The position numbers and the translations under genes were made by a program. From positions 406,372 through 470,371 of the forward strand of contig JAXLZV010000001.1 of NCBI GenBank assembly GCA_046350755.1: 64,000 bases of DNA. Reading direction: 5' to 3'. The first letter of the stretch is position 1. Each line of letters starts with the position of its first letter. This DNA is from Candidatus Saccharimonadota bacterium (GTDB taxonomy: Bacteria > Patescibacteriota > Saccharimonadia > CAILAD01 > GCA-016700035). Shown here piece after piece: positions 24,424 to 50,322 of the stretch. The notes under the pieces are model-generated. The model had not been told where the DNA came from. It searched no databases and saw nothing but the letters and a program-made list of their open reading frames with translations.

Positions 24424-26807
24424 TTAGCGTAAACGCCAGGCTCGGATAGACGAGAGCCCCACCCAGATACCGGCGACCGCTAGCGTGATCACGCCGGCCA
24501 ACCACTGAAGGATCGACTGACCCGTATCCGCCAGACCAGACACACTGGTGACGGTGATGTTGGTGGCTAGACTGAATTCACTTGTCGCACCGAAGCCAGA
24601 GGTGGTCGTATTGTTGACGGCTGTAGCAGTAGCGGTGATAGATTTACCGGTGAGATCAGTACCATTTGCTAGGGTTAGAGTAGTTTCTTGGCCACTGCCG
24701 CTATTCACGGTTGCTGATCCCAGGTAGGTTTGTCCCTCACCGTAGCCGGAAGGATCGGCTGAGTCGTTGGCGAAGAACTCCACGCGGTAATTACCATCAG
24801 TACTGTCAGCAGCATCGAGATCAAAGTTAACAGCCAAGGTCGAGTTAGTTTGCGTAGCCGCGTTGATGACCGGGAAGTTTAGGTAGTTGTTGGGGCCGGT
24901 GTCGGGGTCGGCAAAATCGTTAGGGTTTGGTCCCTCGTTGGTAACCGAGAGTGGTAAAAATGTATTTGGATCGAGAACGAAATGCATATCATCAATTCCT
25001 AAGCCAGGCAAAGGCAGTCCGAATGTGTTGCCAATCTGGTTATTGAAGATTTTGTTACCCAATATAGAGTTTCGGGCTGGGGTACCGGTATAGACAGTTG
25101 GGAGTTCGAACTCAGCCGTAATAACGCCTGCCCCCACATTACCAGCAATAATATTTGCCTCTGCTGAATTTACTCCCCCGATGAGATTGTCGTTTGAATC
25201 ACCGTAAATGACGATACCAGAGAACTGCGTAATGGCCGGGTCATAGCTACCACTATCGTTGGTGCCGATATAGTTGCCTTGAATAGTATTATCGTCCGAG
25301 GCAGATCCGAACGGGACTGCCCCATAAATGAGGATGTTCGCATAGCCCGTGTTACCAGAAATGATATTCCGCTGCCCAGCCAAACTGCCGCCAACCGTAT
25401 TGCCAGATGAGAGGAGTAAAGAGATCCCGCTTCCAGTATTATTTTTGATAGTGTTACCACGGATAATCGTGCCAGTTCCACCAATCTGCATGCCGTCTCC
25501 GCCGTTACCCGTAATCGTATTGGAGGTAATCACACCGCCCGTAACACTTCCCTGATTTATGCCGTGCTGCTGGTTATCGCGTATTTGATTCAGGCTGAGA
25601 GTAATATTACTTACACCAGTAGAGCCCAACCCTATGCCGCTATTCAGATTATCGTGAACGATGTTCCCCTCGACAGTTACGTTGGTAACATTCTGGTTGA
25701 GCGAGATCCCGCCTGTTTTCCAGCCAGCCACAAGATTATTTTTGATTGTCGAATTCGTAAGGTTCGAAACTGAGAAACCACTTCCGTTACTGCCGCCTGT
25801 TACGTTCCCCAGTACAGTCGTCCCATCGTAGCCCAGACCGATATAGTTCCCTTCCATAGTCACGTTCGTTGCCTGGTCAGGCGCCAGTCCGTGCCCCAAG
25901 CTAGCTCCGATCACATTTATGGCTCCTGGTTGACTCCCGCCAACGACCACGTCGCTACAATTATCTATTGAAAGCGCCCCGCTTCCAGCATTCGTACTAT
26001 TTGATATCGCCGTGAGTCCATCAGCGGCGACACCAATATAATTACCTTGAAATACCCACCCTGTACTCGGATAACTAGCCGTCGCCGACGACCCCGAAGT
26101 GTTGCCGGAAATTAAATTACGATCAGCCGGATTCAAGCCGCCAACCAAAACATTCTGTGCAATATTGGGGTTCCCAACATAAGTATTAACGCCGACAGTA
26201 TTCGGTCGCGCTGTCGTCCCCGCCGGATTGGTGCCGATATAATTCCCCTGCACCTGTATGTCGTCGGCGAGCAAGCTCAGTGCATCACCTGAACCGTAAT
26301 TATTGATCACCAGACCACGAACCGTACTCCCATCGCTGTTGTTCCGAAAATTCAGACCGTTCGCTGCACCTGCATTAGTTCCATCCAATTCGATCAACAA
26401 GATACCATTCATAGGTAGTGGTGCTGCGGCAGTATTGGCCTGTGCACCAGTCTGCGAATAGCCATTGATGACAACTGGTTCAGTGATGTCTGGAAGTGCT
26501 GAAGTTGGAGCGATGGTATGGCCGTTCTGTCCACCATTCGTGAAGTCAGCTGGACCAGTGATTGCAAAGTTGATCGTGTCTGTGCCCGAGCCAGCCGCAC
26601 ATTCACCAACTGCCGCACCGGAGACAGCATCAGTATTCGCTGAAATGATTGCTTCGCGTAGTGTGCAAGCTCCATCGTTGGCAGCGATATCACCGTTACT
26701 GTTGACCGATAGCGTTGCAGCTGAAGCCCGTCAGCGAATAACACCAACCCAACTGTGGTCATCGCCACCAGCGCCAGCAGGCGCAAGCTAATATTTTTCA
26801 CCCTCAT
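24424..26807 (-). pseudogene. sortase-anchored right-handed beta-helix surface protein with CSLREA-like N-terminal motif; -1 frameshift right after the signal peptide (or sequencing error)
   Basis: Signal peptide MRVKNISLRLLALVAMTTVGLVLFADG in frame A (ATG 26807). Frame B, open from 26730, reads RASAATLSVNSNGDIAANDGACTLREAIISAN... into the 24424-26412 ORF. The switch sits at the CCC/GGG run at 26727-26729. C-terminus LADTG + TM + RLR. Confidence 0.6.
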
Positions 26808-26889
26808 AGTTACTTCTTATTCTACCGAAGCGTAAGCGATAAAAGAAGGGGGCTACTGTAGCTTCACCTCAATCACGATCTATAAAATA

Positions 26890-29193
26890 TCAAGAAACAT
26901 AACGACTATGCATCGAAAGTATTTTCAAGCCAAGCCATAATCCAGACAAAGTGAGCATAATTATGGTAATCACATACCGCCACACACTCTCCCCCGTCGG
27001 CGCCAAACTCGTCGTCGCCAGTCCCACGGGATCTATCACCGTGCCATTGACGAGTCCATCTTGGTCGAGTGGTCCACCGTCAGTGATTTGGTACGTGAGC
27101 TTGAGCATAGACTTACCGTTGTAGTCTTCTCGGGTAATGGTAGCGCCTGGGATGTCGGAGTAGGTTTTGGAGTCTGTCTTGTACTTTCGAGCCGTGTAGT
27201 CAGAAGGGTTACCGGGGAGATCGTAGTAGAGAGTGACGGTCTTAGTAGCTCCGGGGGTGGTGGTGAATTGGAAGGATGTGAGACCAGCCGGATAGCTACC
27301 AGCAGAATCTTTGGGGAGAGACTTGGGATCGATGGCTGAGACGGTAGGACTGGTCACATCACCGGGGAGGACGAGAGTGACGGTCGAACCTTTGACGGGG
27401 TCGGGGTAGGTTAAGGGTTGGCCGGTATTGCCGCCACCATCAGTAGACTGACAGTTGTCGGTAGAGACGTCGTGGTCGCAGAGGATGTCGATAGACCCTG
27501 ATGCCGGCAGGGCAACATAGAGCCTACCATTAGGTCCAACATCCATGCCATAAGGATAATACCGATTTCCTGAAATATCCCTCGCTTCATTACTGTACAC
27601 AGTCTGGTAGATCCCATTTCTATCAAATTTTTGAATACGACCACCTCCGTCTTGCAAAACATCAGAGGCATATATATCTCCACTATTACTTACTGCAATG
27701 CCAAGTAAATAATTAAATTCTCCAGCCGTCGACCCTTCTACACCAAGCTTCATTAAGAAATTGCCGGAGCTATCAAATTTTTGAATGCGGTGATTGCTAG
27801 TATCTCCAACGTACAAATTATCTTGGTTGTCTACCGAAAGGTAAGCCGGTCCATCAGTAGCATCAAATTGACCATTACCGGAACCTTTTGAGCCAAACTG
27901 ATTGAGTAATGTACCCGAACTAGAATACTTATATATTTGACTCGCCGCTTGATTAAACCAGTAAACGTTATCTTGCGAATCGGCAGCAATACCAAAACCC
28001 TCCTCTGGTAGATTCCACGCATCTAGTGTTTGGCCACCATAATTCAACTTTTTCAGCTTTAACAAACCTCCGTCTGCCGCTGCAACTGTATATATATAAT
28101 TTGGTGAAGTCGTGACCATGTAATCAATTTCGGTATTTGATGTCCACGTATCTAGGAACTGACCAGTAAGGCTATACGACACTAATCCTACATCGCCTTC
28201 AAGAAATGGTATATATAATTTATTTCCATGAACTTTAAGAGTATATGCAGTAATAAGATCTTGATTCGTAACGCCGCCAATAATGCTTACAAAATTGCCT
28301 AATGCATCGAACTTTTGAATTCTATTATTATAGGTATCTGCAACATAAATATTGGCACTTGAATCAATCGCTATTCCCCTTGGAGTATCAAACAGGCCCT
28401 CAACTTCACCAATTGAGCCGAACTGCGATTGATATACTCCAGAGCTGTTGAATTTTTGGACACGCGTATTATCTAAAACAAATATATTACCTGTACCGTC
28501 AATTGAAATGCCCGTGGCACCAGAAAATTGCCCATCGCCAGAGCCCTCGGACCCAAATTGCGATTGATATACTCCAGAGCTGTTGAATTTTTGGATGTCG
28601 CTGCTGGTTACAACATAAATGTCGCCATTCAAATCTAGATCTAAGCTATCGGCAGATGCCTCAAATTGTGATTGGTACACACCAGAACTATCAAATATTT
28701 GGACACGATTATTGCCCGTGTCGGCAACGAGCATACTTCCATCGGATTTAATGACTAAGTCACGTGGTAAATTTAACTCACCATTACCGCTACCATAAGA
28801 ACCAAACTGACTCAGATAATTACCCTGACTATCAAACTTTTGAATGCGATGATTATTTGTATCAGCCACATATAGATTGTCTGCAGAATCGGTTGCAATA
28901 CCGTAAGAATATCCAAACTGCCCATCACCAGTGCCGGCAGCTCCAAACATCAGCAGATAATTACCAGAGCTGTCATATTTAATAACACGCCTATGGTTAC
29001 CATCAAACACGTAAATATTATCTTGAGTATCAAGAGCTACATCTTGAGCTTCACTGATTGGGGGTGAGCTATACCCCCCAATATGCCCGATATTAGTAAT
29101 GCCAGTCGCAGCGTGAGCATGACTTGAGAGTGCGAGCATAGCTACTGCAGCAATAGTCAGGGCTGAAAAAGCTTTGGTGAGCTTGGTAATCAT
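26890..29193 (-). CDS. NHL-repeat beta-propeller surface protein, shared C-terminal module + LAPTG sorting signal
   Basis: Signal peptide; repeated YVADTNNHRIQKFD NHL repeats; C-terminal YPAGLTSFQFTTTPGATKTVTLYYDLPG...LAPTG-TM. Confidence 0.8.
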   Translation of the reverse strand: MITKLTKAFSALTIAAVAMLALSSHAHAATGITNIGHIGGYSSPPISEAQDVALDTQDNIYVFDGNHRRVIKYDSSGNYLLMFGAAGTGDGQFGYSYGIATDSADNLYVADTNNHRIQKFDSQGNYLSQFGSYGSGNGELNLPRDLVIKSDGSMLVADTGNNRVQIFDSSGVYQSQFEASADSLDLDLNGDIYVVTSSDIQKFNSSGVYQSQFGSEGSGDGQFSGATGISIDGTGNIFVLDNTRVQKFNSSGVYQSQFGSIGEVEGLFDTPRGIAIDSSANIYVADTYNNRIQKFDALGNFVSIIGGVTNQDLITAYTLKVHGNKLYIPFLEGDVGLVSYSLTGQFLDTWTSNTEIDYMVTTSPNYIYTVAAADGGLLKLKKLNYGGQTLDAWNLPEEGFGIAADSQDNVYWFNQAASQIYKYSSSGTLLNQFGSKGSGNGQFDATDGPAYLSVDNQDNLYVGDTSNHRIQKFDSSGNFLMKLGVEGSTAGEFNYLLGIAVSNSGDIYASDVLQDGGGRIQKFDRNGIYQTVYSNEARDISGNRYYPYGMDVGPNGRLYVALPASGSIDILCDHDVSTDNCQSTDGGGNTGQPLTYPDPVKGSTVTLVLPGDVTSPTVSAIDPKSLPKDSAGSYPAGLTSFQFTTTPGATKTVTLYYDLPGNPSDYTARKYKTDSKTYSDIPGATITREDYNGKSMLKLTYQITDGGPLDQDGLVNGTVIDPVGLATTSLAPTGESVWRYVITIIMLTLSGLWLGLKILSMHSRYVS

Positions 29194-30401
29194 TTCTGCA
29201 AGGCCTTTCGACTCACCCAGACACCACCGGCAATGAGAGTAATTACGCCAAGCATATACGCGGAGAGATTAGTGCCGGTGTTGGCCAAACTGGTAGTCGC
29301 TAGTCCCACGGGATCAATCACGGTGCCATTGGCGAGTCCGTCTTGGTCGAGTGGTCCACCGTCAGTGATGTTGTAGGTCAGTTTAAGCATAGATTTGCCG
29401 TTGTAGTCTTCACGGGTGATGGTAGCGCCTGGGATGTCGGAGTAGGTGCGAGTTGCAGAGTTATACTTCCGAGCGGTGTAGTCAGAAGGGTTACCGGGGA
29501 GATCGTAGTAGAGGGTAACGGTCTTGGTAGCACCGGGGGTGGTGGTGAATTGGAAGGATGTGAGACCAGCGGGATAACTGTAGGCAGAGTCTGCCGAGAT
29601 AGCACTAGCAGCAATAGGGATAATTTGGGGATTGGTGACATCACTGGGGAGGATGAGAGAGACCGGTTTATTGTTAGAAGTACTACCAGTAAGGGGCTGG
29701 GGCGAGCAGTTAGCGTCATCATACGTCAGTTGGACCGACTGTATGGTTGTTTGTGCAATTGTAGTTGATCCGTTAAACCAGTGCTGCACGTAGATCCCTA
29801 GCGTATCTCCTGGAATATACGTGCTCAAATCCCAGGTAGCATCAAGCTGACCGGCTAATCCAAGTGCAGCCGGGAATTCACCGTTATGACCTACTCCACG
29901 ATCAACTGCTGGAGTAGCAAATGGTGCTGGAAACCAAGTATCTAGATCTTCGCCTTTACCATCATTAATTGTGTAATTACTCCTAAATACTAGGCCATCT
30001 GAGCCGCCATATAGTGCAAGAAAAAGCCCGCTCAAAGGTGTTTCATTTTGAGTTTGCGTATCGGTAATAAGCCTCATTGATTGTATTTGCGCACCGTTAC
30101 AGAGAGTCGGCATCGTTATGTGCCACGTATAGACCCAGGGACCGGGTGTATTATTCGAATCAAGACTGTCAGATTGTGTGGTCGTAGTATTTAAGGGTTC
30201 TTTTAACTCCACACCTGTATCGGTTGCCCTTATACCGCCTGCGGTAATATATGGATCGTCATTTGCAATTGTAGTATTGAGCTGAATTGTTTGAGATGCG
30301 GCATGGGTAGGAGCAGCCGCTACTAACATGCCGGTACCGCAGAGTATGGCAAACAATCCAACAGCCGCAATGCGGCGGAAAGCCCTCTGCTTACTTCTCA
30401 T
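29190..30401 (-). CDS. secreted surface protein, shared C-terminal module + LANTG sorting signal
   Basis: Signal peptide; C-terminal module and LANTGTNLSAYMLGVITLIAGGVWVSRKALQK tail; 4-nt overlap with the downstream gene. Confidence 0.7.
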   Translation of the reverse strand: MRSKQRAFRRIAAVGLFAILCGTGMLVAAAPTHAASQTIQLNTTIANDDPYITAGGIRATDTGVELKEPLNTTTTQSDSLDSNNTPGPWVYTWHITMPTLCNGAQIQSMRLITDTQTQNETPLSGLFLALYGGSDGLVFRSNYTINDGKGEDLDTWFPAPFATPAVDRGVGHNGEFPAALGLAGQLDATWDLSTYIPGDTLGIYVQHWFNGSTTIAQTTIQSVQLTYDDANCSPQPLTGSTSNNKPVSLILPSDVTNPQIIPIAASAISADSAYSYPAGLTSFQFTTTPGATKTVTLYYDLPGNPSDYTARKYNSATRTYSDIPGATITREDYNGKSMLKLTYNITDGGPLDQDGLANGTVIDPVGLATTSLANTGTNLSAYMLGVITLIAGGVWVSRKALQK

Positions 30402-30499: not shown

Positions 30500-31447
30500 T
30501 TAAGGGCTGGGTGTTGACTGCGGGGAGACATCCGGCGATTCGGTCGGTGAAGGCGTGGATGGTGACGCCGTGGGCGATGGTGACGACGGCACAGGCTTCG
30601 GGCTCGGCTTAGGTACTTTCGGAGACTGAGATGGCGAAAAGTTTGGCAACTTAAAGAGTAGCTTACGAAGCTGCTCGGCTTGTGCTGGTGTCAGCGGCTT
30701 AGACGGTGTAGTCCCCTTAGCTATCGGTGCATTTGGAGCTTGTTGTGACTTACCCGACGTTGACTGTTGCCATTTCTCTGGGCCATCCTTGGTGGTAGCC
30801 TCGATCACAATCCGCCCATCAGCCGAGCCACCCAGCGAGCAGCTATAAAGTGTTAGCTTCGAGGTTTCGCTGGGCGCCTCGATTTCCGTCGCATTCGGCT
30901 TCACACTATACTTCTTTGTCACCGTGTAGGTATACCATTTACCCTTGAAGAATATCCGCATCGTATCACCCTCTTTGAGCTTGTCCAGGTTATAAAATGG
31001 TGAACGTTTCTTCGTCTCGGCTGGCGTGGTACCAATACTAAAACGATGGGCTGAGAGGATGAAGTTACCTCCCTGCTCTGGATCGCCACGATCCGGATAA
31101 CGGTGCCACGAGCCCTTATCAAGCTCCTCTGGACCGCCGGTGAAGAATGGTACCTCAAGATTAATTTTCTCGATTTGGATGCGATCGCGATTATCAGTTG
31201 CATCGTCGGCTGTATTCAGATCGATCTCCGACTTACCAGCCAGTATCGGCAGCTGTGGGGTAAGCAACAAGTACGCCATATAGAGACCAGCTGCAATTAA
31301 GCCGATCGAAAGGGCTAACAGGAGTCCTCGCTTGCGCTTGGATACTTTTCTGGCAGGTCGATGTGGCAGTCCTGCGCCGGATTGATCATTTGGCAGTATG
31401 TGCCTGCGTTTGCGCGAACGAAAAAGCTGCGGTTTCTTTACTTTCAT
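30500..31447 (-). CDS. sortase (class E-like) with Pro/Ser-rich C-terminal tail
   Basis: N-terminal TM, catalytic His in ILSAHR, TLxTC-type Cys motif LTLYSCS, C-terminal (SP/TP)n tail. Confidence 0.85.
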   Translation of the reverse strand: MKVKKPQLFRSRKRRHILPNDQSGAGLPHRPARKVSKRKRGLLLALSIGLIAAGLYMAYLLLTPQLPILAGKSEIDLNTADDATDNRDRIQIEKINLEVPFFTGGPEELDKGSWHRYPDRGDPEQGGNFILSAHRFSIGTTPAETKKRSPFYNLDKLKEGDTMRIFFKGKWYTYTVTKKYSVKPNATEIEAPSETSKLTLYSCSLGGSADGRIVIEATTKDGPEKWQQSTSGKSQQAPNAPIAKGTTPSKPLTPAQAEQLRKLLFKLPNFSPSQSPKVPKPSPKPVPSSPSPTASPSTPSPTESPDVSPQSTPSP

Positions 31448-31634
31448 AAGCTTTTATTATAACCGATTTTTCTGAGATCGAACTGTGCACAGTAGCCCCG
31501 GTCCAATGGTACTAAGCACGATCATCGCGGTCAGATAGCCAAGCGTCTACTCTACTGTACCATCAGCTTTACCAGCCTCAGCCGTTCGATACAACATATA
31601 TATCAGGCATGCTGCATTATGCTACAGTTTCTAT

Positions 31635-33044
31635 ATGGCTACACCTGCACCGAAAACTGTTTTATTAGTGCCATTTAGCTCGAATGATCAATCACGGATC
31701 CTGATTTGGCAGCATGTCCATAGTTGGCTCACGCAAACTTTGGATTACCCACTCTACCTAGGTGAACATTTTCCTGAAACTCCAGGCACCTATAACCTCA
31801 GTCTCGCCCGCAACCTCGCAGCCCAGAAAGCTGGTGACTGGGAAGTGGCGGTTATCCATGATGCTGACACGGTCATTAACCCACAGCAGATTACCGCCGG
31901 TGTGGCCGCCGCCTATGAAACGGGTGCCGTCACCTACCCCTACACTGAGCGCTGGGAACTAGACTTTACCGGCACGAAAATGTTGCTCAGCGACGAAACC
32001 AGCAAATGGCAGCAATATATGACACCATATGCACACAATCAACCGCTTGGTGGTTGTATCATTGTGCGTCGGGACTTATGGGAGCTAGTACGTGGTTTTG
32101 ACACTGGCTTTGTGGGCTGGGGCCACGAAGACGGCGCGTTTGCGATTGCCTGTCAGGTTTTGAGCGGCAAACTGTTGCAGCGCATCCCCGGCAAATCATT
32201 GCATCTCGAACACGTCTTGGCACCGGCCAAGCGACCAGACAATCCTATCTATCGTGCTAATAAGGCACGCATCGACCAATATATACAGGCTGGCGACCAG
32301 CCGAATGGGTATGAGCTCATCCGGAAACTGCGTGATGCGTCCATTGCAACCGATCAAGCAAGCGGTATTCACTGGTCACCAAATGAATCTGAAAACAAGG
32401 GCATGAATACCACCACTGCCCTCATGCTCTTGCGCGATGTAGCGGCAGTACTCGAGAAGTATCAGTGTACTCATTGGCTGAGTGATGGCACCTTGCTTGG
32501 TACGATGCGCGAGAATGATTTCATCGCCCATGATGATGATGTCGACCTCGGTGTATGGGCGGCGGACTTTGATATCCGCGTCATCCACGAACTCATCAAT
32601 AGATATGGTTGCAGAATAGTCAGGCTACAAGGCACGCCAGATGACGGTATGATCATCTCCGTACAACGACTTACCGTTCATCTGGATATGTTTTTCTATT
32701 ATCCCCTAGCAAAGTCAGAGAAAGGACATCCGTCAGCAAAAATCTACCACAGCATCTATTTTCTCGAAAAACCTTACAATACATCGAATAAAGCCAGACG
32801 ATACAATTGCGTGTACCCAGATTTCAAACCACTAGTGCGGCGTAGCTTTAAAGGCCATGAGTTTTGGGTACCCGAAAATGCCAAGCAGCATTTGGTCGCT
32901 GCCTATGGTAAGGACTGGAGAAAACCACAGCCAAATTGGGATACCGAGAAAGATCAGCCTAATCTCGTGCGGCATGGCACCGCCAGTGATATGGCAGCCG
33001 ACCGACAGCAGGTTGAACAGTTTCTCAAAATACGTCGACTATGA
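31635..33044 (+). CDS. bifunctional GT-A glycosyltransferase / LicD-family phosphotransferase fusion (copy 1)
   Basis: N-terminal GT-A: HDADTV (DxD), GGCIIVRRDLWELVRGFDTGFVGWGHEDG. C-terminal LicD: WLSDGTLLGTMRENDFIAHDDDVDLGVWAADFD. Confidence 0.75.
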   Translation: MATPAPKTVLLVPFSSNDQSRILIWQHVHSWLTQTLDYPLYLGEHFPETPGTYNLSLARNLAAQKAGDWEVAVIHDADTVINPQQITAGVAAAYETGAVTYPYTERWELDFTGTKMLLSDETSKWQQYMTPYAHNQPLGGCIIVRRDLWELVRGFDTGFVGWGHEDGAFAIACQVLSGKLLQRIPGKSLHLEHVLAPAKRPDNPIYRANKARIDQYIQAGDQPNGYELIRKLRDASIATDQASGIHWSPNESENKGMNTTTALMLLRDVAAVLEKYQCTHWLSDGTLLGTMRENDFIAHDDDVDLGVWAADFDIRVIHELINRYGCRIVRLQGTPDDGMIISVQRLTVHLDMFFYYPLAKSEKGHPSAKIYHSIYFLEKPYNTSNKARRYNCVYPDFKPLVRRSFKGHEFWVPENAKQHLVAAYGKDWRKPQPNWDTEKDQPNLVRHGTASDMAADRQQVEQFLKIRRL

Positions 33045-33973
33045 TCCTTGCGTCATCGCCCAACCCACTATCTTTTGTAGAGTTTGAGGTTTTGCGACAG
33101 CTCACGAGTCAGAATGAATATACAGTATCAAGCCTGCCTGACTCACTCATCTTTCTTAATGCACAGGAAATACAGCATGCCGTTCAAGATTTACTCCAAA
33201 AAAAACTTGTGCAGCAGTCACGCCACACACTCCTAGCTACCCCCGCAGCACAGTCTGCCCTCGAGCCATACCGAGTTAAGCGCGCCGTAATTTTAGCAGC
33301 TGGACGGGGTGAACGCTTGCGACCAGAAACAGACACTACCCCAAAACCGATGGTACGAGTACACCACAAGCGACTGATCGAAACACAGCTCGATGCCCTC
33401 GCTGCGGCTGGCATACATGATGTCACGATTGTGCGCGGGTATAAGGGCGAGCTATTCGATGAGCTACTGGAGACATATCCGCACATCAAATTTATCGATA
33501 ACCCTCGTTGGGACAGTACTGGCGGGATTGTTTCAGCCGCACTGGCAGTCGATAAACTAGCTGGAGCCTACCTGATAGAAGGCGATTTTTTCGTAAAAAA
33601 CCCGGCCGTACTCCGACCATACGAATACCGCAGTTCGTATTGTGGTACTCTGGGCGCGACCCACAATGACTGGTACTTTTCGGTCGACCAAGCGCAAAAA
33701 ATTCATGCCCTCGCCTTCGGAGACTCACAACCGAATGACTATAAATTTATCGGTATCATGTACTGGGCGCCACCAGAAGCCGAGCAGCTCAAGCTTGATC
33801 TGCCGACAGTATTACAAACTCCTGCTGGCAAGCAGGGTTTTATTGAGGGTGTCCCATTTAATGCTCAGGCTGGCACCTACAATATCTATGCCAGGCGGCT
33901 ACTGAATGGTGATGTGACAGAAATTGACACACATGCAGAGCTGCTGGCATTGCGAGCTCGTGAGCATCGATAA
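33041..33973 (+). CDS. LicC-like sugar/phospho-alcohol nucleotidyltransferase with ~85-aa N-terminal extension (copy 1)
   Basis: AVILAAGRGERLRPETDTTPKPMV...IVRGYKG (compare LicC AIILAAGLGTRLRP..TENTPKALV); 4-nt overlap with the upstream gene. Confidence 0.75.
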   Translation: MILASSPNPLSFVEFEVLRQLTSQNEYTVSSLPDSLIFLNAQEIQHAVQDLLQKKLVQQSRHTLLATPAAQSALEPYRVKRAVILAAGRGERLRPETDTTPKPMVRVHHKRLIETQLDALAAAGIHDVTIVRGYKGELFDELLETYPHIKFIDNPRWDSTGGIVSAALAVDKLAGAYLIEGDFFVKNPAVLRPYEYRSSYCGTLGATHNDWYFSVDQAQKIHALAFGDSQPNDYKFIGIMYWAPPEAEQLKLDLPTVLQTPAGKQGFIEGVPFNAQAGTYNIYARRLLNGDVTEIDTHAELLALRAREHR

Positions 33974-34160
33974 TTATCCCGAGAGCTACGACCCAGTTTG
34001 GCAATTCCTGCTTATAGATTGATGCAAGGAAAAAATTGACGATGCTTATGGTTAGACGATACTATGAACAGAGTATCAACATACGTGGTTCTACTCCAAA
34101 GCACACGGAGAGATATGAAAAGTAGGTACCGACATAATTAAGTCAGTAAAAAGGGTCTAG

Positions 34161-36050
34161 ATGGCAATCAACACGCATGCGCTGCAGGCGAAATTAACCT
34201 CAAAAGAATTTGCCTTTCTGTGTTTCCTCTTGGTAGTGGTGTTTGTGTATCGACCCGGCCATGCTCACGCCGCGACCATTGATGTCGCGGCTGGCTCAAG
34301 CCTGGCTAATCCTGGCGACAACATCTGTCAAATTAATGAAGCCATCGAAAACGTTAATAGCGGCACACGAACCTATGCTGACTGTATCGAGACTGGCAGC
34401 TATGGAAGCAACGACACTATCAACCTGCCCATCGGTACGATCACAGGTCCTGGCTCTTCTCTAACTAGTGTATACAAGTATAATAATGAGAGCTTAAAAT
34501 TTGTTGGCCAAGGCCGCGGCCAATCAATTCTCGATGGCGCTGGGCTCTACCTGGTCGGTGACGGAAACTACACCGTGCAAGATCTCACCATGACAGGCTA
34601 TGGGGTTGAAGCGCACAACAGCTCCAACCTCACAATTAAGAACGTCGAAATTGATTTATTAAGCGGCAGTGGCCCAGCCATTTTGGCCGATGCCAGCAAT
34701 GTCGACATCCAGGACAGCTACTTCCATAGTATGCTCCCCAATGGTTCAGGCTATGCGCTTGTTAACTTTGAGGCCTTCAATAACAACACTTTCACGATGA
34801 ACCGCACCACCCTGAGCGATGCCGGTCAAGGTTTGCTGCTACTGCTTTCAGGCAGTGGCTTGGAGGATGCGGCTAGTGCAACTATTACTAATAGCACTTT
34901 CACCGACCTGACCGGCTTGGGCGGCCTCGATGGCAGTGGCTTTTTCTCTACTGCAACCGGTATATCTGCTGGGGCTATAACCTACGGCAGTGGCAGTGTT
35001 ACCCTCAACTACACCACCACCAATAACACCTTTAGTAACATCACCAACAGCGATAACGGCTTCGTTAAGGCCGCGGCAATTCGGGAAGCTTCGTATTTTG
35101 AGGGCAGCGGAGCCGCCACCGTTAATCACACTGCACACAACGATCTGTATGCAGTGGGTAATGGCAGTAGTGCAGTCAATTACAATCGCTTCGACATATC
35201 CGCTTTACTTGGTTCAGGCTCCGGCTCCAACGGCAGCTATACTACCACCAGTAACGGTGGGAATGTCTCGAGTGACAATTCGTTCGCAAGCTACCTGACC
35301 AACCCCATGGACAAGCACAATGAGACCTCGCTGGCATCATTCTTGGGTGTCTTGACTGACAATGGTGGCTCAGCGCCTACCCTCGCACTGACTGAAGGCT
35401 CACCCGCCATTGATGCTGGGACCAATGTTGGTGGTATGACGACTGACCAGCGGGGTGCCACGCGACCACAAGGGAATGCCTTCGATGCCGGTGCCTATGA
35501 GTCAGCTTTCTCGGTTGCCTTTCCGACCCTGACCTACCCCGACCCCATCAAAGGCTCGACCGTCACCCTCGTCCTCCCCGGTGGTGTGACCAATCCAACG
35601 GTTGGAGCGGTAAATTACACGACACTTCCCAAAGACGGAGATAACAAGTATCCGGCTGGTCTGACGACCTTCACCTTCACCACCACTCCTGGTGCGACCA
35701 AGGCCGTCACCCTCTACTACGATCTCCCCGGTAGTCCAGCTGACTACACAGCTCGGAAGTACAACACTACGACCAAGCTGTATAGCGATATCCCGGGAGC
35801 TACCATCACCCGCGAAGACTACAACGGTAAGAGTATGCTGAAGCTCACTTACTCCATCACTGATGGTGGCATCCTCGACCAAGACGGTACGGTCAATGGC
35901 ACGATTGTGGACCCCGTGGGGCTGGCCACCACCAACCTGGCGGATACCGGGATGAATGCGAAGCTGTTGTCTGTCCTGGCAGCTGGCCTGCTGGCACTGG
36001 CCACATCCATCATGGTGCTGGCAAGTCGACTTGATCGTCGCTTGAGGTAG
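34161..36050 (+). CDS. sortase-anchored beta-helix surface protein with CSLREA-like motif, shared C-terminal module + LADTG
   Basis: Signal peptide; ICQINEAIENVN; N-x-T/S-rich beta-helix repeats; C-terminal module; LADTG-TM-RRLR. Confidence 0.75.
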   Translation: MAINTHALQAKLTSKEFAFLCFLLVVVFVYRPGHAHAATIDVAAGSSLANPGDNICQINEAIENVNSGTRTYADCIETGSYGSNDTINLPIGTITGPGSSLTSVYKYNNESLKFVGQGRGQSILDGAGLYLVGDGNYTVQDLTMTGYGVEAHNSSNLTIKNVEIDLLSGSGPAILADASNVDIQDSYFHSMLPNGSGYALVNFEAFNNNTFTMNRTTLSDAGQGLLLLLSGSGLEDAASATITNSTFTDLTGLGGLDGSGFFSTATGISAGAITYGSGSVTLNYTTTNNTFSNITNSDNGFVKAAAIREASYFEGSGAATVNHTAHNDLYAVGNGSSAVNYNRFDISALLGSGSGSNGSYTTTSNGGNVSSDNSFASYLTNPMDKHNETSLASFLGVLTDNGGSAPTLALTEGSPAIDAGTNVGGMTTDQRGATRPQGNAFDAGAYESAFSVAFPTLTYPDPIKGSTVTLVLPGGVTNPTVGAVNYTTLPKDGDNKYPAGLTTFTFTTTPGATKAVTLYYDLPGSPADYTARKYNTTTKLYSDIPGATITREDYNGKSMLKLTYSITDGGILDQDGTVNGTIVDPVGLATTNLADTGMNAKLLSVLAAGLLALATSIMVLASRLDRRLR

Positions 36051-36092
36051 GCGCGCCGTACATAGGGGTGGGATGTGTGATACAGTTTCTCT

Positions 36093-37499
36093 ATGACTCC
36101 TACATCACCAAAAACAGTCCTTTTGGTGCCATTCAGCTCACCTGAGCCGTCGCGAGTTCTCATCTGGCAACATGTCCGGAAGTGGCTCGAGCAAACTTTG
36201 GATTACCCGCTCTACGTCGGAGAGCATTTTCCCGAATCGACTGAGACCTACAACCATAGCCTAGCTCGTAACCTTGCGGCCCAGAAAGCTGGCGACTGGG
36301 AAGTAGCGGTTATCCATGATGCTGACACAGTGATTAACCCAAAGCAAATTACCGTTGGTGTAGCCGCCGCCTATGAAACTGGCGCTATTACCTATCCCTA
36401 CGACGAACGCTGGGAGCTCGACACCACTGGCACCAAGATGTTCCTCACTGATACAACCAGCAACTGGCAACAACACATGACGCAATATACTCGTGATGTT
36501 CCACTCGGTGGCTGCATGATCATCCGACGAGATCTTTGGGAACTAGTACGTGGTTTTGACACTGGCTTTGTGGGCTGGGGCCACGAAGACGGTGCGTTTG
36601 CGACTGCCTGTCAGGCGTTGGATGGCTGGAGGCTCTTACGCATTCCCGGCAAATCATTTCATCTCGAGCACGTCTATGCACCGGCAAAAAACCCAGACAA
36701 TCCAATCTATCGCGCTAATAAGGTGCGGATCGACCGATACATGCAGGCTGGCGACCAGCCCAATGCTCACGTGCTCATCCAAAAACTACGCGATGAATCA
36801 ATTCCTACCGACCTAGAGCATGGCATCATGTGGTCAATACCCCAATCCGACGATAAGAAAATGCACCAAGCGCTCGCCTTCATGCTCCTACGCGACATTG
36901 CTAGCGTGCTCGAGAAATATCAGTGCACCTATTGGCTGAGTGATGGCACCTTGCTTGGTGCGATTCGAGAAAATGATTTCATCGCCCACGATAACGACGT
37001 TGACCTCGGGGTGTGGGCGGCCGACTTTGATGTCCGGGTTATTCACGAACTGCTACATAGATTTGGTTGTAGATTTGGCAGACTCCAGGGTAAGCCTGAT
37101 GACGGCATGCTGATCACGCTCCAACGAGCGGGCGTACATCTCGATCTGTTTTTTTATTATCCTCTCAAAAATTCAACTATTTCTGAAAAATCAGCAATCT
37201 ATTGCAGTAGTTATATGCTGCTAAAGCCCTACGACTCGTCAAATAAAGCCAAGCGTTATGACTATCTCTACCCAGATTTCAAACCACTAGTGCGTCGCAG
37301 CTTGAAAGGTCATAATTTTTGGGTACCCAAAAATGCCAAGCAACATTTAATTGCTGCCTATGGTAAGAACTGGCGCACACCACAGCCAAACTGGGACACC
37401 ATGAAAGACCAGTGCAACATTAAGTCTCACGGTATTGTGAAAGATATGGCGGCCGAGCGACAGGCAATCGAAGAGTATTTACAGTTACGTCGCGCATGA
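36093..37499 (+). CDS. bifunctional GT-A glycosyltransferase / LicD-family phosphotransferase fusion (copy 2)
   Basis: Paralog of 31635-33044 with identical motifs and stretches of near-identical nucleotide sequence. Confidence 0.75.
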   Translation: MTPTSPKTVLLVPFSSPEPSRVLIWQHVRKWLEQTLDYPLYVGEHFPESTETYNHSLARNLAAQKAGDWEVAVIHDADTVINPKQITVGVAAAYETGAITYPYDERWELDTTGTKMFLTDTTSNWQQHMTQYTRDVPLGGCMIIRRDLWELVRGFDTGFVGWGHEDGAFATACQALDGWRLLRIPGKSFHLEHVYAPAKNPDNPIYRANKVRIDRYMQAGDQPNAHVLIQKLRDESIPTDLEHGIMWSIPQSDDKKMHQALAFMLLRDIASVLEKYQCTYWLSDGTLLGAIRENDFIAHDNDVDLGVWAADFDVRVIHELLHRFGCRFGRLQGKPDDGMLITLQRAGVHLDLFFYYPLKNSTISEKSAIYCSSYMLLKPYDSSNKAKRYDYLYPDFKPLVRRSLKGHNFWVPKNAKQHLIAAYGKNWRTPQPNWDTMKDQCNIKSHGIVKDMAAERQAIEEYLQLRRA

Positions 37500-38449
37500 A
37501 TGCCGCCACAACAGATCAAAACCTATCGTATGCTACATTCGAAGTGTTACAGTATGCCGTCACCCAAGACGGAGTAGATCCGGCCGATAGTAGCCATGAG
37601 ACCTTGGGTCTAAGTAAAACCGATAGAGATTTCGCCATCAAACAGCTTATTCATAAAGGATTGTTGCGTAAGACCGGCCGCATCCTCCGAGCCACCGCCG
37701 CCGCACAGTCGGCCCTCGAGCCATACCGAGTAAAGCGCGCCGTAATTTTAGCAGCCGGACGTGGTGAACGTCTGCGACCAGAAACCGACACTACCCCAAA
37801 ACCAATGGTACACGTACACAGTAGACGTCTCATCGAAACGCAGCTTGATGCTCTGGCCGCCGCTGGCATCCGTGACATCACAATTGTACGTGGGTATAAG
37901 GGCGAGCTGTTTGATGTGTTGTTGGAGACATATCCGCACATCAAGTTTATCGATAATCCTCGTTGGGACAGTACTGGAGAGATTATCTCGGCATCGTTAG
38001 TTATCGACTATCTCGCTGGCGCCTACCTCATCGAAGGTGATTTGTATATTCGCAACCCGGCCGTGCTGCGACCATACGAGTATCGCAGTTCATGGTGCGG
38101 AAAGCCCGGCGCGACCCACAATGACTGGTACTTTTCGGTCGACCAGAAGCAAAAAATTCACGCCCTCGCTTTTGGAAATACACAAGGTCAGCACGACTAC
38201 ACGTATGTTGGTATTGAATACTGGGCACCCCCAGAAGCCCGCCAGCTCAAGTTTGATCTGCAGACAGTATTACAAACTCCAGCTAACCAGCAAGGCTTTA
38301 TTGAATCTATCCCGTTTGATCCCATATATGGTACCTACAATATCTATGCCAGGCGATTGCTAGATGGTGATGTTACAGAAATCGACACACATGCAGAGCT
38401 GCTGGCATTGCGGGATCGTGAGCATCGCGAACCAGCTTTTCGGCCATAA
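37496..38449 (+). CDS. LicC-like nucleotidyltransferase with N-terminal extension (copy 2)
   Basis: Paralog of 33041-33973; AVILAAGRGERLRPETDTTPKPMV; divergent N-terminus FEVLQYAV...LSKTDRDFAIKQLIHKGLL (wHTH-like). Confidence 0.75.
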   Translation: MNAATTDQNLSYATFEVLQYAVTQDGVDPADSSHETLGLSKTDRDFAIKQLIHKGLLRKTGRILRATAAAQSALEPYRVKRAVILAAGRGERLRPETDTTPKPMVHVHSRRLIETQLDALAAAGIRDITIVRGYKGELFDVLLETYPHIKFIDNPRWDSTGEIISASLVIDYLAGAYLIEGDLYIRNPAVLRPYEYRSSWCGKPGATHNDWYFSVDQKQKIHALAFGNTQGQHDYTYVGIEYWAPPEARQLKFDLQTVLQTPANQQGFIESIPFDPIYGTYNIYARRLLDGDVTEIDTHAELLALRDREHREPAFRP

Positions 38450-38471
38450 CCTTTTCCCAGCACATATCTAT

Positions 38472-41400
38472 CTACAAAACTGATAGTTTTGTAGACGCGA
38501 GAGTGAGGCCAAGGCCTGCGAGGATGAGAGAGCCCATGGCGCAGAGATACGCCCAAGTACTCTCCCCCGTCCCCGCCAAACTCGTCGTCGCCAGTCCCAC
38601 GGGGTCCACAATCGTGCCATTAGCAGTGCCGTCTTGGTCAAGTGCTCCACCGTCAGTGATGGAATAAGTGAGTTTGACGGCGTGTTGGCCACCGATCGTG
38701 ACGTCGGTGAGGGCGGCTCCGGGAATATCTGAGTAGGTGCGACTGGTCGCATTGTACTTGCGAGCTGTGAATGAGTTTGCTCGCGCATCGGTATAGAAGT
38801 AGAGTTCTACGGGGATAGTAGCTCCTGGAGTCGTGGTAGCGGTGAAAGAGACGAAGCCTAGAGGATAGTCTTTCCCCTTATCTTGGGTTGAGAAGGAGCG
38901 AGCTTGTTCAATGATAGTGGCATCAATGGTGACACCATTCGGAACTACGAGGGTAATGTAGCGCCCGTCGGCATTGGGGAGTGACGTGACGTTAGATTGC
39001 TGAGCGTCTGGGGTGCCATCATTGTTACCGTCTCCATTGTTGGGAGCTGCGTTTTCGATGGTGTCGGGGATGGTGTCGGTGTCGGAGGAAGTAGGGGCAG
39101 CACCGTATATCAGATTAAAAATATTGTTAGAAGCTATTGAGTAAAGTGGCGTCCCAGTCTGAACAGCCTCAAATAAAGCCTGAATGTCCGGCTCTTGGTC
39201 AAAACTATCATGTATCAGCGCACCACGAAGAGTATTATTGCCTACTGCAAAGTCTGAGGTAGCAATCAGGCTTAAGCTTAAGGTCAGCTCAGTGGTGCTT
39301 GGGAGGACAGCATTACTAAATCGTACCTCGCAGATTACCAGATCTTCAGAGTAAGGAGCGAAGGCAGGAATGGAGTCTACTTGATTCATAGGACCAACAT
39401 CTGCACACCCAGTGGTATATAAATCATTGGGAGAAATAGAAACACTATCATATGTTGTATTGGTGGGAAGGTTGAAGTAAATAATTACTCCATCACCGGC
39501 AAAGTAACCAGGGCCAAGGTTCTTGAGATTCACTTCGTAGTTGGCAGTATCGCCGGATGTAATTGGTTGAGCATTGAGGAGTTTGGCGGTAAGACTGAGG
39601 TCGGTTTGCTCGGGACACGGCAGAGTGAAAGTTCGGTCTTCGCCATAGGCACGACCAGCTGAGTTTTCGGCATAAGCACGGTAATGATATGTGGTGCCAC
39701 ATGTAAGATCGTAAAGGTATGCATTACTATCCGTGTTAACCCCATAATAACTACCAGTACTCGTGGCGCCATAACTATTATCGAGGCCGTACTCGACACC
39801 AGTGCTGGGAATCTCATTACCTTCATCTGTGACCATATACTTAATTCTGGCAGAAGTACCTTGCGAGTTCTCGCGAGTGGCTGAGCCGGTATTGATAACT
39901 GGAAGGCTCGGGCAGGCGGATGTCGTAAAAGTTGCGTCATCCCCATAAGTTACAGCCTCATTGTTTATGGCGTAGGCGTGGTAATGATAAGTAGCGTTAC
40001 AATCCAAATCTGCAATATTAGCGCTGAAATCACCTGAGTTAGTTGTCTGGGTAAATATTTGGATTCGATTATATGTAGTATCGGACAGAATGAGTTGTCC
40101 TTGATTATTCATCGTTAGTCCAACAACGAAATCAAACCCACCAGCGCTCATTGTTTGCTGACCCCATTTGGTGATAAAAGTCCCACTTTCATCAAATATC
40201 TTCATGCGTCGGTTCTCCGTATCAGAAACAAACACATATCCTTGCGGACTTGTAGCCAAGCTTACGGGCAGAATAAACTGACTATCGCCTGAGCCCTGCG
40301 ATCCCCACTTGAGCATAAAGGCTCCATTGTTATCGAACTTTTGAACGCGATTATTGTTGCGATCAGCTACATAGAGATTATTTGAGGTATCAACAGCTAT
40401 CCCATACGGCAGATTAAACTGTCCATCATTACTCCCGAGAGTACCCCATTGGCTAACATATGATCCTGAGCTATTAAACTTCTGGATACGATTATTTTGA
40501 GTGTCGGCGACAAACATATTCCCATTTGAATCCACGGCAATGCCATAGGGGCTTGAGAGCTGTCCATTCCCAGACCCCGACGTGCCAAATTTGCTGATAA
40601 ACATTCCTGAGCTATTAAACTTCTGGATACGATTATTCGCGGTATCAACAACGTATATATTATTTGAAGAGTCGATTGCTAGACCTGTTGGGTTATCGAA
40701 CTGACCATCGCCCGAACCAGACGATCCCCATTGGGTTATATATGAGCCATTGCTATCAAACTTCTGGATACGATTATTATTACGATCAGCTACATAAATA
40801 TTATTTGAGGTGTCAGTGACGACTCCATAGGGGTGACTAAACTGACCATTAAGAGATGGATTGTGACCCCATTGCAAGAGATAGTTACCGCTGTTATCAA
40901 ACTTCTGAATGCGACCATTCTCATTATCACCAACGTATACATTGCCAGAAGAGTCTACCGTAATGCCGCGGGGCCCGGAGGCGAACTGATTATTACCTGT
41001 TCCGACAGACCCCCACTTGAGAATGAAGCTCCCGCTACTATCAAATTTTTGCACATTCGTACCATAAAGATCGAGCACAAAGATATTGCCCGAAGAATCT
41101 ACAACAAGGTTTATAGGTGCAATAAACTGACCATCGCCCGAACCAAAAGATCCCCATTTCAGAATAAAGGCACCATTGCTGGTAAATTTTTGGATACGTC
41201 GATTATCAATATCAACTACATACACGTTATTAGATGAGTCGATAGCTAGGTCAACAATGCTTCCAAATTGCCCATCACCACTGCCCTGCGACCCCCATTG
41301 GGTAAGTAAATTATCATTTGCATCATATTTCTTGATAGTGTGATTATTCGAATCGGCAACATAGATATTATTGGCAGAGTCCACTGTAATACAGCCGGTG

Positions 41401-45862: not shown

Positions 45863-45873
45863 GCTTCGTCTGG

Positions 45874-45946
45874 TGGCTGCGGGTGGAATCGAACCACCGA
45901 CCTTTGGCTTATGAGTCCACTGCTCTAACCCCTGAGCTACGCAGCC
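45874..45946 (-). tRNA. tRNA-Met-like (anticodon CAU, elongator type) with non-canonical anticodon stem
   Basis: GGCUGCG acceptor, D and T arms intact, loop CUCAUAA; anticodon stem GUGGA/GCCAA has only 3 central pairs; encoded CCA. Confidence 0.6.
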
Positions 45947-46037
45947 ATGTACTGTATTATATAACGCTCAAGAGCCTTATGATGTGTTTTTCTACCTATA
46001 TGCAAATGCCCCAGACTAGCTGAGGCGCTTGCTTTGG

Positions 46038-46110
46038 TAGCGGGGGTAGGACTCGAACCTACGACCTTCAGGTTATGAGCCTGACGAGCTGCCAACTGCT
46101 CCACCCCGCG
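46038..46110 (-). tRNA. initiator tRNA-fMet (CAU)
   Basis: CGCGGGGUGGAGCAG...CUCAUAA...CCCCCGCUACCA; near-identical to E. coli tRNA-fMet, with 1-72 mismatch (C-U). Confidence 0.85.
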
Positions 46111-48213: not shown

Positions 48214-48222
48214 GCTATCTGA

Positions 48223-49359: not shown

Positions 49360-49360
49360 A

Positions 49361-50231: not shown

Positions 50232-50304
50232 TGGGCCCGTAGCTCAGTGGTTAGAGCAGTCGGCTCATAACCGATTGGCCGCTGGTTCAAATCCAGCCGG
50301 GCCC
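50232..50304 (+). tRNA. tRNA-Ile2 (CAU, lysidine-modified) or tRNA-Met
   Basis: GGGCCCGUAGCUCAGUGGUUAGAGCAGUCGGCUCAUAACCGAUUGGCCGCUGGUUCAA.UCCAGC; closely resembles E. coli tRNA-Ile2; tilS present in window. Confidence 0.8.
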
Positions 50305-50322
50305 ACCACTTCACTGAATCAT

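Follow-up and report, generated by a model that had tools for sequence, protein, structure and literature searches.

A glycosyltransferase-LicD fusion encoded with a LicC-like cytidylyltransferase in Saccharibacteria: a putative bifunctional tailoring enzyme of a surface glycoconjugate pathway

The stretch of DNA considered here, 64,000 nucleotides of contig JAXLZV010000001.1 from a Candidatus Saccharimonadota genome (referred to below as the window), harbors two copies of a gene in which a glycosyltransferase domain of the GT-A fold is joined, via a helical linker, to a phosphotransferase domain of the LicD family. Each fusion gene is followed directly by a gene for a LicC-like cytidylyltransferase. 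The central elements are the following:

31635..33044, + strand: fusion gene copy 1 (469 amino acids, ATG start), encoding a GT-A domain, a helical linker and a LicD-type phosphotransferase
31635..32234, + strand: GT-A domain of copy 1 (residues 1-200), GT2/GT7-like, inverting type
32235..32408, + strand: helical linker (residues 201-258), with helices at 204-220, 225-234 and 237-242 in the AlphaFold2 model; conserved
32409..33041, + strand: LicD/FKRP-type nucleotidyltransferase-fold phosphotransferase domain (residues 259-469)
33041..33973, + strand: LicC-like cytidylyltransferase 1 (310 amino acids; Pfam NTP_transferase and NTP_transf_3)
36093..37499, + strand: fusion gene copy 2 (468 amino acids, ATG start), with GT-A and LicD motifs all intact
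37496..38449, + strand: LicC-like cytidylyltransferase 2 (317 amino acids), with the same ATGA overlap onto copy 2

The fusion and the LicC-like gene form a tandemly duplicated unit, i.e., positions 31620-33969 match 36078-38427 at 75-81% nucleotide identity with an offset of approximately 4,457 bp. At the protein level the two fusions are 74% identical over their full length. Copy 1 is 100% identical to a protein named "LicD family protein" of Candidatus Saccharibacteria bacterium at NCBI, and copy 2 is found on the same contig. Between the copies, the ratio of nonsynonymous to synonymous substitution rates (dN/dS) amounts to 0.12 in the GT-A half and to 0.16 in both the linker and the LicD half. 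The dS is approximately 1.2-1.4 overall and 1.2-1.3 in the two halves, and the dN/dS values of these halves indicate that both are under purifying selection. An earlier reading made from the DNA sequence alone (the sequence-only reading) had stated that the second copy preserves both halves, which is borne out by the identity given above, by the occurrence of the same Pfam pair and by the intact motifs. Neither a signal peptide nor a transmembrane segment was found in copy 1, the maximum Kyte-Doolittle score of which is 0.9 (19-residue window). Because the fusion has no hydrophobic segment, it is predicted to act in the cytoplasm, as do LicD1 and LicD2. A scan of positions 31300-38700 for promoters and terminators gave counts that were not above those of shuffled controls.

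Residues 275-312 of copy 1 match the Pfam family LicD (PF04991; E = 9e-9, 36.2 bits as compared to a gathering threshold of 22.6; 36.0 bits for copy 2), while residues 126-171 match Glyco_transf_7C (PF02709; E = 8.6e-6), where the score of 25.7 bits is marginal relative to the gathering threshold of 23 (26.1 bits for copy 2). Models of the Glycos_transf_2 type remained below threshold with the GT-A half, this half displayed no specific kinship to the FKRP stem as defined by Pfam FKRP_N, and the linker (residues 201-258) matched no Pfam family. Among NCBIfam models, the LicD half is best matched by the Mf1 cholinephosphotransferase (E = 1.8e-14 and 2.9e-17), at 54-64 bits as compared to a model cut-off of 225. 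Because the LicD profile match covers only about 40 positions, the fold was checked independently. An AlphaFold2 model of the fusion, obtained with 28 family members, had a predicted local distance difference test score (pLDDT) of 90 and a predicted template modelling score (pTM) of 0.87, and a Foldseek search with this model retrieved FKRP (E = 7e-13) and beta4GalT1 (E = 6e-9). The N-terminal half was found to have a GT-A fold and the C-terminal half a nucleotidyltransferase (Pol-beta-like) fold; the LicD family corresponds to group XXIII of the nucleotidyltransferase-fold proteins of Kuchta et al. 2009. The claim that a GT-A and a LicD domain reside in a single polypeptide is upheld by the two Pfam matches, both above gathering threshold, and by the agreement of the folds.

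The motifs that were quoted in the sequence-only reading (HDADTV, GG..R..F..VGWGHED and W.SDGTLLG) are present where it had placed them. In copy 1, VIHDADTV comprises residues 73-80, LGGC..RRDLWELVRGFDTGFVGWGHED residues 138-166 and WLSDGTLLG..FIAHDDDVDLGVW residues 281-308. Alignment of the fusion to beta4GalT1 and beta4GalT7 (HMMER), and to FKRP, assigns the following positions:

31860..31868, + strand: DxD motif D76-A77-D78, aligned to D252-V-D254 of bovine beta4GalT1 (HMMER, 1tvy)
32115..32132, + strand: G161-W-G-H-E165-D166 (GWGHED), aligned to G313-W-G-G-E317-D318 of beta4GalT1, donor pocket
32202..32213, + strand: H190-L-E-H193, aligned to M344..H347 of beta4GalT1, ligands of metal site I
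32532..32546, + strand: D300-D-D302-V-D304 (DDDVD), aligned to D360, D362 and D364 of FKRP (HMMER)
32685..32687, + strand: D351, candidate third catalytic acid (equivalent of FKRP D416), present in 27 of 28 sequences, the exception being the fully degraded P0037
36318-36326, + strand: DAD motif of copy 2
36573-36590, + strand: GWGHED motif of copy 2
36990-37004, + strand: DNDVD motif of copy 2

In this fold, the DxD motif is involved in binding of the nucleotide sugar and the metal (PMC4202792, PMC7565966). Metal site I of bovine beta4GalT1 is composed of D254, M344 and H347, and uridine diphosphate (UDP)-Gal is bound near D252, E317 and D318, of which D318 is essential (PMC7565966, PMC4202792). 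The corresponding residues of the fusion, D76/D78, W162 (which pairs with W314 of beta4GalT1), E165-D166 and H190/H193, are identical in all 28 family members. As regards the LicD half, D360, D362 and D364 of FKRP bind metals and the donor and are essential (PMC6965139); their equivalents D300, D302 and D304 are kept in 25-26 of the 28 sequences and lost in P0021, P0033 and P0037. In the region of the hG[GS] motif, G344-G345-S346 of FKRP aligns to D284-G285-T286, where the Gly is kept in 25/28 sequences and a Thr is found in place of Ser/Gly. As judged from these alignments, both halves carry complete sets of predicted catalytic residues, and the GT-A half is probably catalytically active.

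The same uninterrupted two-domain architecture is found in 37 database clusters at 49-82% identity. With one genome scanned per species, full-length copies were found only in metagenome-assembled genomes (MAGs) of Saccharibacteria, except for two contigs of 5.3 and 5.0 kb (L006 and L022) that are binned as Pseudomonadales and Flavobacteriales MAGs, respectively. Gene order and an identity of 49-78% to Saccharibacteria genes indicate that these are probably mis-binned Saccharibacteria contigs; in L022 the fusion copy is broken into pieces. A scan of a viral contig collection revealed no relatives of the Saccharibacteria fusion. In one relative of 468 amino acids (P0003), the sequence is similar to copy 1 up to approximately residue 170 and to copy 2 over approximately residues 172-260, a pattern that suggests recombination between both paralogues in another genome. 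Elsewhere, the same GT-A subfamily is joined to a second transferase domain (a tandem copy, a GT32-like Gly_transf_sug domain or a GT4 domain), which fits with enzymes that perform two consecutive additions.

In both copies the stop codon of the fusion overlaps the start codon of the LicC-like gene in the sequence ATGA (33041-33044 and 37496-37499). The closest relative of known structure of the two LicC-like proteins is Streptococcus (S.) pneumoniae LicC (1JYK; E = 4e-22 for protein 1 and 7.7e-21 for protein 2), followed directly or closely by PntC (6PD1; E = 2e-10 and 1e-11, respectively). The former is a cytidine triphosphate (CTP):phosphocholine cytidylyltransferase, while PntC is phosphonate-specific. 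A paralogue on the same contig, 70% identical (P0192), is named "phosphocholine cytidylyltransferase family protein" at NCBI, and the Pfam IspD model remained below threshold (E = 0.005-0.009). The LicC-like proteins have an N-terminal extension of approximately 75 residues that is winged-helix-like. The equivalent of LicC W136 is retained, and the overall scores are higher against LicC than against PntC.

Homologues of the LicC-like protein that share the winged-helix-like segment are found in Lactobacillaceae, at 38-41% identity over nearly the full length. Here the gene is located in polysaccharide clusters of the Wzx type, directly after a stand-alone LicD gene (L058) or a gene for a TagF-like transferase (L057), and it is followed by genes for an NTP-transferase/choline-kinase fusion, a permease and an OCD-family enzyme. 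The five-gene modules concerned (L057:8776-15324 and L058:9069-15218) begin with the TagF-like Glyphos_transf gene and the LicD gene, respectively, and include an NTP_transferase plus choline-kinase/APH fusion of 583-591 residues, an AA_permease and an OCD/mu-crystallin enzyme. In this way, two distinct cytidylyltransferase-like proteins are encoded next to each other, and both have the same N-terminal "ALEPYRV" extension. A metagenomic protein of 863 residues (P0073) combines LicD, NTP_transf_3 and a class I/II aminotransferase in a triple fusion; judged by its domains it resembles a PntC-AEPT-type activation module joined to LicD, i.e., a possible "Rosetta stone" linking LicD to LicC/PntC-type enzymes.

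A functional link between the LicD half and the LicC-like protein is suggested by a tabulation of every distinct fusion copy in the retrieved loci. An intact HDxDxD motif is accompanied by a LicC-like gene immediately downstream in 14 of 14 distinct copies, while none of the five distinct copies with a degraded LicD motif (ITNSKNTA, ITNSKDTV, ISQDKHAV and, twice, DLATHELF) has one, even though 1.6-10 kb of DNA is available beyond them (p = 8.6e-5 in Fisher's exact test, with no correction for shared ancestry). At one locus (L062), intact and degraded copies are found in the same genome, 1 kb apart. This strict association suggests that the compound formed by the LicC-like enzyme serves the LicD half as its donor. 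GWGHED is retained in the degraded copies, as is DAD wherever the N-terminus is present, which suggests that the role of the GT-A half is independent of LicD and outlasts its loss. Furthermore, in L020 a stand-alone GT-A gene is found after the same surface-protein gene that precedes the fusion elsewhere, and in L025 the LicD and glycosyltransferase halves are separate genes.

This surface-protein gene and a sortase gene are the neighbors of the fusion that recur in other genomes:

34161..36050, + strand: surface protein (629 amino acids) upstream of copy 2, with an N-terminal signal/anchor, choice-of-anchor Q and U domains, LADTG and a C-terminal transmembrane segment
30500..31447, - strand: sortase, divergent from copy 1 (Pfam Sortase, E = 3.4e-17)

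The surface protein matches the NCBIfam models choice_anch_Q (E = 2e-22) and choice_anch_U (E = 1.7e-15); a search against solved structures gave no matches for it. Profile mapping of 26 related loci showed that the order surface protein, fusion, LicC-like protein recurs across species. Orthologues of the surface protein with 41-60% identity are encoded directly upstream of the fusion in L001, L002, L004, L008, L009, L012, L013, L014, L017 and L062, and the gene is the most constant neighbor of the fusion, being located 4-57 bp upstream in 10 or more species-level loci. Upstream of copy 1 in the window, such a gene is absent. A sortase gene divergent from the fusion is also found in L004, L005, L007, L021, L059 and L061.

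From these data, the fusion is most likely a soluble, cytoplasmic, bifunctional tailoring enzyme of a surface glycoconjugate pathway in Saccharibacteria. That both halves are catalytic and that the LicD half receives its donor from the LicC-like partner to act on a surface glycoconjugate is, in our assessment, somewhat better supported than not. In the proposed scheme, the co-translated LicC-like enzyme would use CTP and a small phospho-head-group to form a cytidine diphosphate (CDP)- or cytidine monophosphate (CMP)-activated donor, where the head group would most likely be an amino-alcohol phosphate (phosphocholine or phosphoethanolamine type) or phosphonate (2-aminoethylphosphonate type). 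The GT-A half, presumably inverting and metal-dependent with a beta4GalT-like site, would transfer a beta-linked hexose from a UDP-sugar to a precursor on the inner side of the membrane, the leading candidate for this acceptor being a lipid-linked glycan. The LicD half, with its FKRP-type two-metal Asp site, would then move the phospho-head-group from the CDP donor to the glycan with release of CMP. The product would be exported and displayed on the wall beside the sortase-anchored choice-of-anchor proteins of the same cassette. What is assigned here by inference comprises the activity of each half, the sequence of their action and the identity of sugar, head group and acceptor. Tailoring of a lipid-linked glycan is favored, by analogy, by the Lactobacillaceae clusters, by the cytidylyltransferase neighbors of other GT2+LicD fusions and by the two-transferase GT-A fusions. 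The idea, already put forward in the sequence-only reading, that a single protein transfers a sugar as well as a phospho-group agrees with the GT-A residues kept in all 28 sequences and with the co-occurrence of the LicD motif and the LicC-like gene, while the activity that it implies is a prediction from these patterns.

A number of observations weigh against this scheme. The PF04991 match spans only profile positions 2-40 of 227, and the equivalence of D351 to FKRP D416 was inferred from its position in the fold. The pocket of the LicC-like protein is mixed: a Glu is found at the position of LicC D105 and PntC E104, and it reads S-T-G where PntC has N-T-G and LicC has D-Y-N. The co-loss of the LicD motif and the LicC-like gene probably rests on two or three independent losses. 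Among the scanned open reading frames (ORFs) of the 64-kb window, no choline kinase/APH, choline transporter LicB, phosphoenolpyruvate (PEP) mutase, TarIJ or TagD was found, and genes for a priming transferase, Wzx/Wzy or LCP do not flank the fusion. Finally, the constant surface-protein neighbor fits protein glycosylation about as well as it fits glycan tailoring.

The last two points make protein modification a serious rival, because the surface protein is the only constant neighbor and genes for a priming transferase, Wzx or LCP are not adjacent. Here the chemistry would be the same, but the acceptor would be the choice-of-anchor-Q surface protein encoded upstream, glycosylated and phospho-capped before export. 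Cytoplasmic glycosyltransferases specific for an adhesin are encoded beside beta-helix adhesins in the pairs HMW1C-HMW1, TibC-TibA and Aah-AIDA-I, and the logic of the present locus resembles that of these pairs. Beyond the proximity of the surface-protein gene and the lack of adjacent classical polysaccharide-assembly genes, the stand-alone GT-A that follows the surface-protein gene in L020, where LicD is absent, is in line with a protein acceptor. However, the LicD enzymes that have been characterised use glycans or glycolipids as acceptors, the winged-helix LicC-like partner resides in polysaccharide clusters in Lactobacillaceae, neither an accessory secretion system nor a Ser/Thr-rich acceptor region was identified, and copy 1 is without a surface-protein gene upstream. 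On balance we consider a protein acceptor possible, if rather improbable.

Clearly less probable is a product of the Mycoplasma (M.) fermentans GGPL type, i.e., a glycolipid with a phospho-head-group, GGPL itself being a phosphocholine-glucosyl-diacylglycerol. In this case, diacylglycerol derived from the host would be glycosylated by the GT-A half, and the head group would be attached by the LicD half. Saccharibacteria share with mycoplasmas a reduced genome and a dependence on host lipids. The best NCBIfam match of the LicD half, Mf1, takes part in GGPL synthesis and is a LicD homologue that uses CDP-choline (PMC3403081). However, this match is far below the model cut-off, and Mf1 is a stand-alone enzyme of 254 residues that acts on a glycolipid. 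In addition, the cassette is tied to sortase substrates and not to lipid genes, and the fusion has no membrane-binding segment.

It is also very unlikely that the fusion is a polymerase in which the two halves alternate to yield a teichoic-acid-like poly(glycosyl-polyol-phosphate). Single-chain enzymes that combine a glycosyltransferase (GT) with polyol-phosphate transfer from a CDP donor, and that make such polymers, have been characterised, namely the TagF-like/GT capsule polymerases of the Actinobacillus pleuropneumoniae Cps type (Litschko et al. 2018, PMC5974469), and the use of CDP-ribitol by domains of the LicD type is exemplified by FKRP and fukutin. In those polymerases, however, the phosphotransferase is a TagF-like GT-B domain (Glyphos_transf) rather than a LicD/nucleotidyltransferase fold, and no match to Glyphos_transf (PF04464) was found in the fusion or among the other scanned ORFs of the window. 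The partner is of the LicC type, not of the IspD/TarI or TagD type, genes for polyol-phosphate synthesis were not found in the window, and a terminal amino-alcohol head group could not be extended. Moreover, loss of the LicD half would not be tolerated in a strictly alternating polymerase, yet selection maintains copies in which this half is dead. While the TagF-like/GT enzymes are polymerases, the Saccharibacteria fusion is more likely a tailoring enzyme.

The GT-A half might, alternatively, be non-catalytic and serve as a stem for acceptor binding and oligomerisation, as does the GT-A-fold stem of FKRP (PMC6965139). The human ribitol-phosphate transferase FKRP (PDB 6KAJ) has the same order of folds as the fusion, with a Foldseek alignment that is collinear over approximately 519 columns, and its stem resembles the catalytic domain of ppGalNAcT-10 (PMC6965139). 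A survey from 2009 likewise described a "probably non-active" GT2 domain in proteins of the Fukutin/LicD group (Kuchta et al. 2009, PMC2794190). In contrast to the GT-A catalytic set of the fusion, which is invariant, the FKRP stem has lost the glycosyltransferase motif, and we regard a mere stem as scarcely probable. Further differences are that the CDP-ribitol of FKRP is supplied by an IspD-type enzyme as compared to the LicC-type partner here, and that FKRP is a type-II membrane protein of the Golgi while the fusion is predicted to be soluble and cytoplasmic. The zinc-finger loop and the donor loop of FKRP are conserved only in its orthologues (PMC6965139).

That an assembly error or frameshift merged two adjacent genes, as could be imagined from naturally split forms such as the separate LicD-only and GT-only genes of L025, is practically excluded by the continuous ORF common to 37 independently assembled clusters, the two unbroken copies in the window and the conserved, structured linker, in agreement with the sequence-only reading.

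The preferred reading, a bifunctional tailoring enzyme with a LicC-like partner, is also related to the lic pathway of S. pneumoniae and Haemophilus influenzae, where a LicD-family transferase and a LicC-type cytidylyltransferase, both cytoplasmic, decorate teichoic acid or lipooligosaccharide with phosphocholine. There, LicD1, LicD2 and LicD are stand-alone proteins. The present system differs in that the LicA kinase and the LicB transporter were not found among the scanned ORFs of the window, and in that the LicC-like protein has the extra winged-helix-like segment and a Glu at the position of LicC D105.

Fusions of a GT-A-type domain to a closely related LicD domain are also found in metagenomes, i.e., the Glycos_transf_2+LicD proteins P0061, P0136, P0169 and P0170, together with the Branch+LicD+GT2 protein P0122 and the GT25+LicD+GT2 protein P0131. 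Their LicD domains match a profile of the C-terminal half with E values of 1e-28 to 1e-40. However, they differ from the Saccharibacteria fusion in GT subfamily, domain order and context (phage- or virus-like contigs, or a phosphonate pathway), and none has a beta4GalT-like N-terminal half, except for a partial Glyco_transf_7C match in P0136. The GT2+LicD fusion of L054 has a TagD-like cytidylyltransferase nearby. On L054 and L055, which carry GT+LicD fusions (P0136, GT2/7C+LicD, and P0122), the surroundings consist of small unannotated ORFs, or of dUTPase and PhoH genes, and these contigs look phage- or virus-like. In L056 (3778-9406) the GT2+LicD fusion P0170 is followed directly by a CTP_transf_like-PEP_mutase fusion, a thiamine pyrophosphate (TPP)-dependent decarboxylase and an iron-dependent alcohol dehydrogenase, i.e., a phosphonate pathway, which points to an ability of LicD domains to transfer head groups of the phosphonate kind. 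Genes for a GT25 enzyme, a Glyphos_transf protein and a DNA ligase are found on the same contig, which may be viral.

In view of these systems, the statement of the sequence-only reading that LicD relatives offer no characterised counterpart cannot be upheld in that form as regards the layout. FKRP, which that reading had listed among the relatives without a counterpart, is itself composed of a GT-A-fold stem followed by a LicD/nucleotidyltransferase domain (PMC6965139), a GT2 domain in the Fukutin/LicD group has been on record since 2009 (PMC2794190), metagenomes contain further GT+LicD fusions, and single polypeptides that transfer both a sugar and a polyol-phosphate have been characterised, albeit with a TagF-like domain instead of LicD (PMC5974469). 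The fusion does not define a new category; both multi-domain enzymes of glycan synthesis and pairs of LicC and LicD are familiar. Its distinctive feature is a GT-A half with what appears to be a complete, invariant catalytic set. The open-access literature that was searched contained no characterised LicD-family enzyme with a catalytically intact fused GT-A half, nothing on LicD in Saccharibacteria and nothing on a bifunctional LicD with a glycosyltransferase domain; a review on the topic mentions only the stand-alone LicD candidate YcbG.

Saccharibacteria are ultra-small epibionts that live in attachment to bacterial hosts, and very little is known about the chemistry of their surface. The conserved, duplicated and selected cassette offers a testable handle on a surface glycoconjugate with a phospho-head-group in these organisms. 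From the perspective of enzymology, a small, soluble bacterial protein is predicted to hold a LicD/FKRP-type phosphotransferase beside an apparently live GT-A domain, and the natural paralogues with a dead LicD half constitute built-in controls for bifunctionality. Such a protein could also help to explain a past or present role in acceptor handling of the degenerate stem in the dystroglycanopathy enzymes FKRP and fukutin. A bolder proposal, which we rate as a long shot, is that the fusion family represents the catalytically complete form of the FKRP/fukutin layout, with both domains working one after the other on the same glycan, that degeneration has been reciprocal (LicD dead and GT-A alive in some Saccharibacteria paralogues, GT-A dead and LicD alive in FKRP), and that a phospho-amine-capped glycan is built directly on the sortase-anchored choice-of-anchor adhesin of the same operon. 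If true, this would add a novel type to the protein modifications of bacteria, bearing on the attachment of the epibionts to their hosts.

Several features of the window surround the cassette, which is set within an island of surface-protein genes. Five surface proteins (26890-30401, 34161-36050 and 38472-44221, with NHL-repeat, beta-helix/CSLREA-like and other types) have a common C-terminal module composed of a choice-of-anchor U domain of approximately 150 residues, an LAxTG motif and a transmembrane segment. The DNA identity of these anchor modules reaches 90% (27002-27165 vs 29284-29447) and is 82% for 29104-29369 vs 41862-42127, which suggests recent exchange or gene conversion. A right-handed beta-helix protein with an LADTG sorting signal is encoded at 24424-26412 (-); the listed ORF start (MNGILLIELDG..) is without a signal peptide and approximately 480 bp upstream (26413-26889) are unassigned, so the start may be misplaced or the gene 5'-truncated. 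The sortase (30500-31447, -) has a Pro/Ser/Thr-rich C-terminal tail of approximately 90 residues (..SPKVPKPSPKPVPSSPSPTASPSTPSPTESPDVSPQSTPSP), which is unusual for a sortase.

A GalU-like enzyme, which could supply UDP-glucose, is encoded at approximately 50.3-51.2 kb, 12 kb from the cassette. A tRNA-Met gene (50233-50308) overlaps the TTG start of this ORF (50275-51189), and the GalU profile match begins at residue 19; because of the overlap, the true start probably lies downstream of the listed TTG. Since the window holds three tRNA-Met(CAT) genes (45871-45946, 46035-46110 and 50233-50308) as well as a TilS gene (23071-24396), one of the three is probably a lysidine-modified tRNA-Ile. A polysaccharide deacetylase is encoded at 44288-45715. 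At 46612-50113 (-), 8 kb from the cassette, a DUF2207 membrane protein gene is followed by those for an ABC-2 permease and an ABC ATPase; in other bacteria, ABC-2 pairs export teichoic acids and polysaccharides. Near the other end of the window, a RimK-type ATP-grasp ligase (6713-7618, -) adjoins a weak match to a MATCAP-like carboxypeptidase (5337-6656, -), and the two may constitute a pair that adds and removes C-terminal amino acids.

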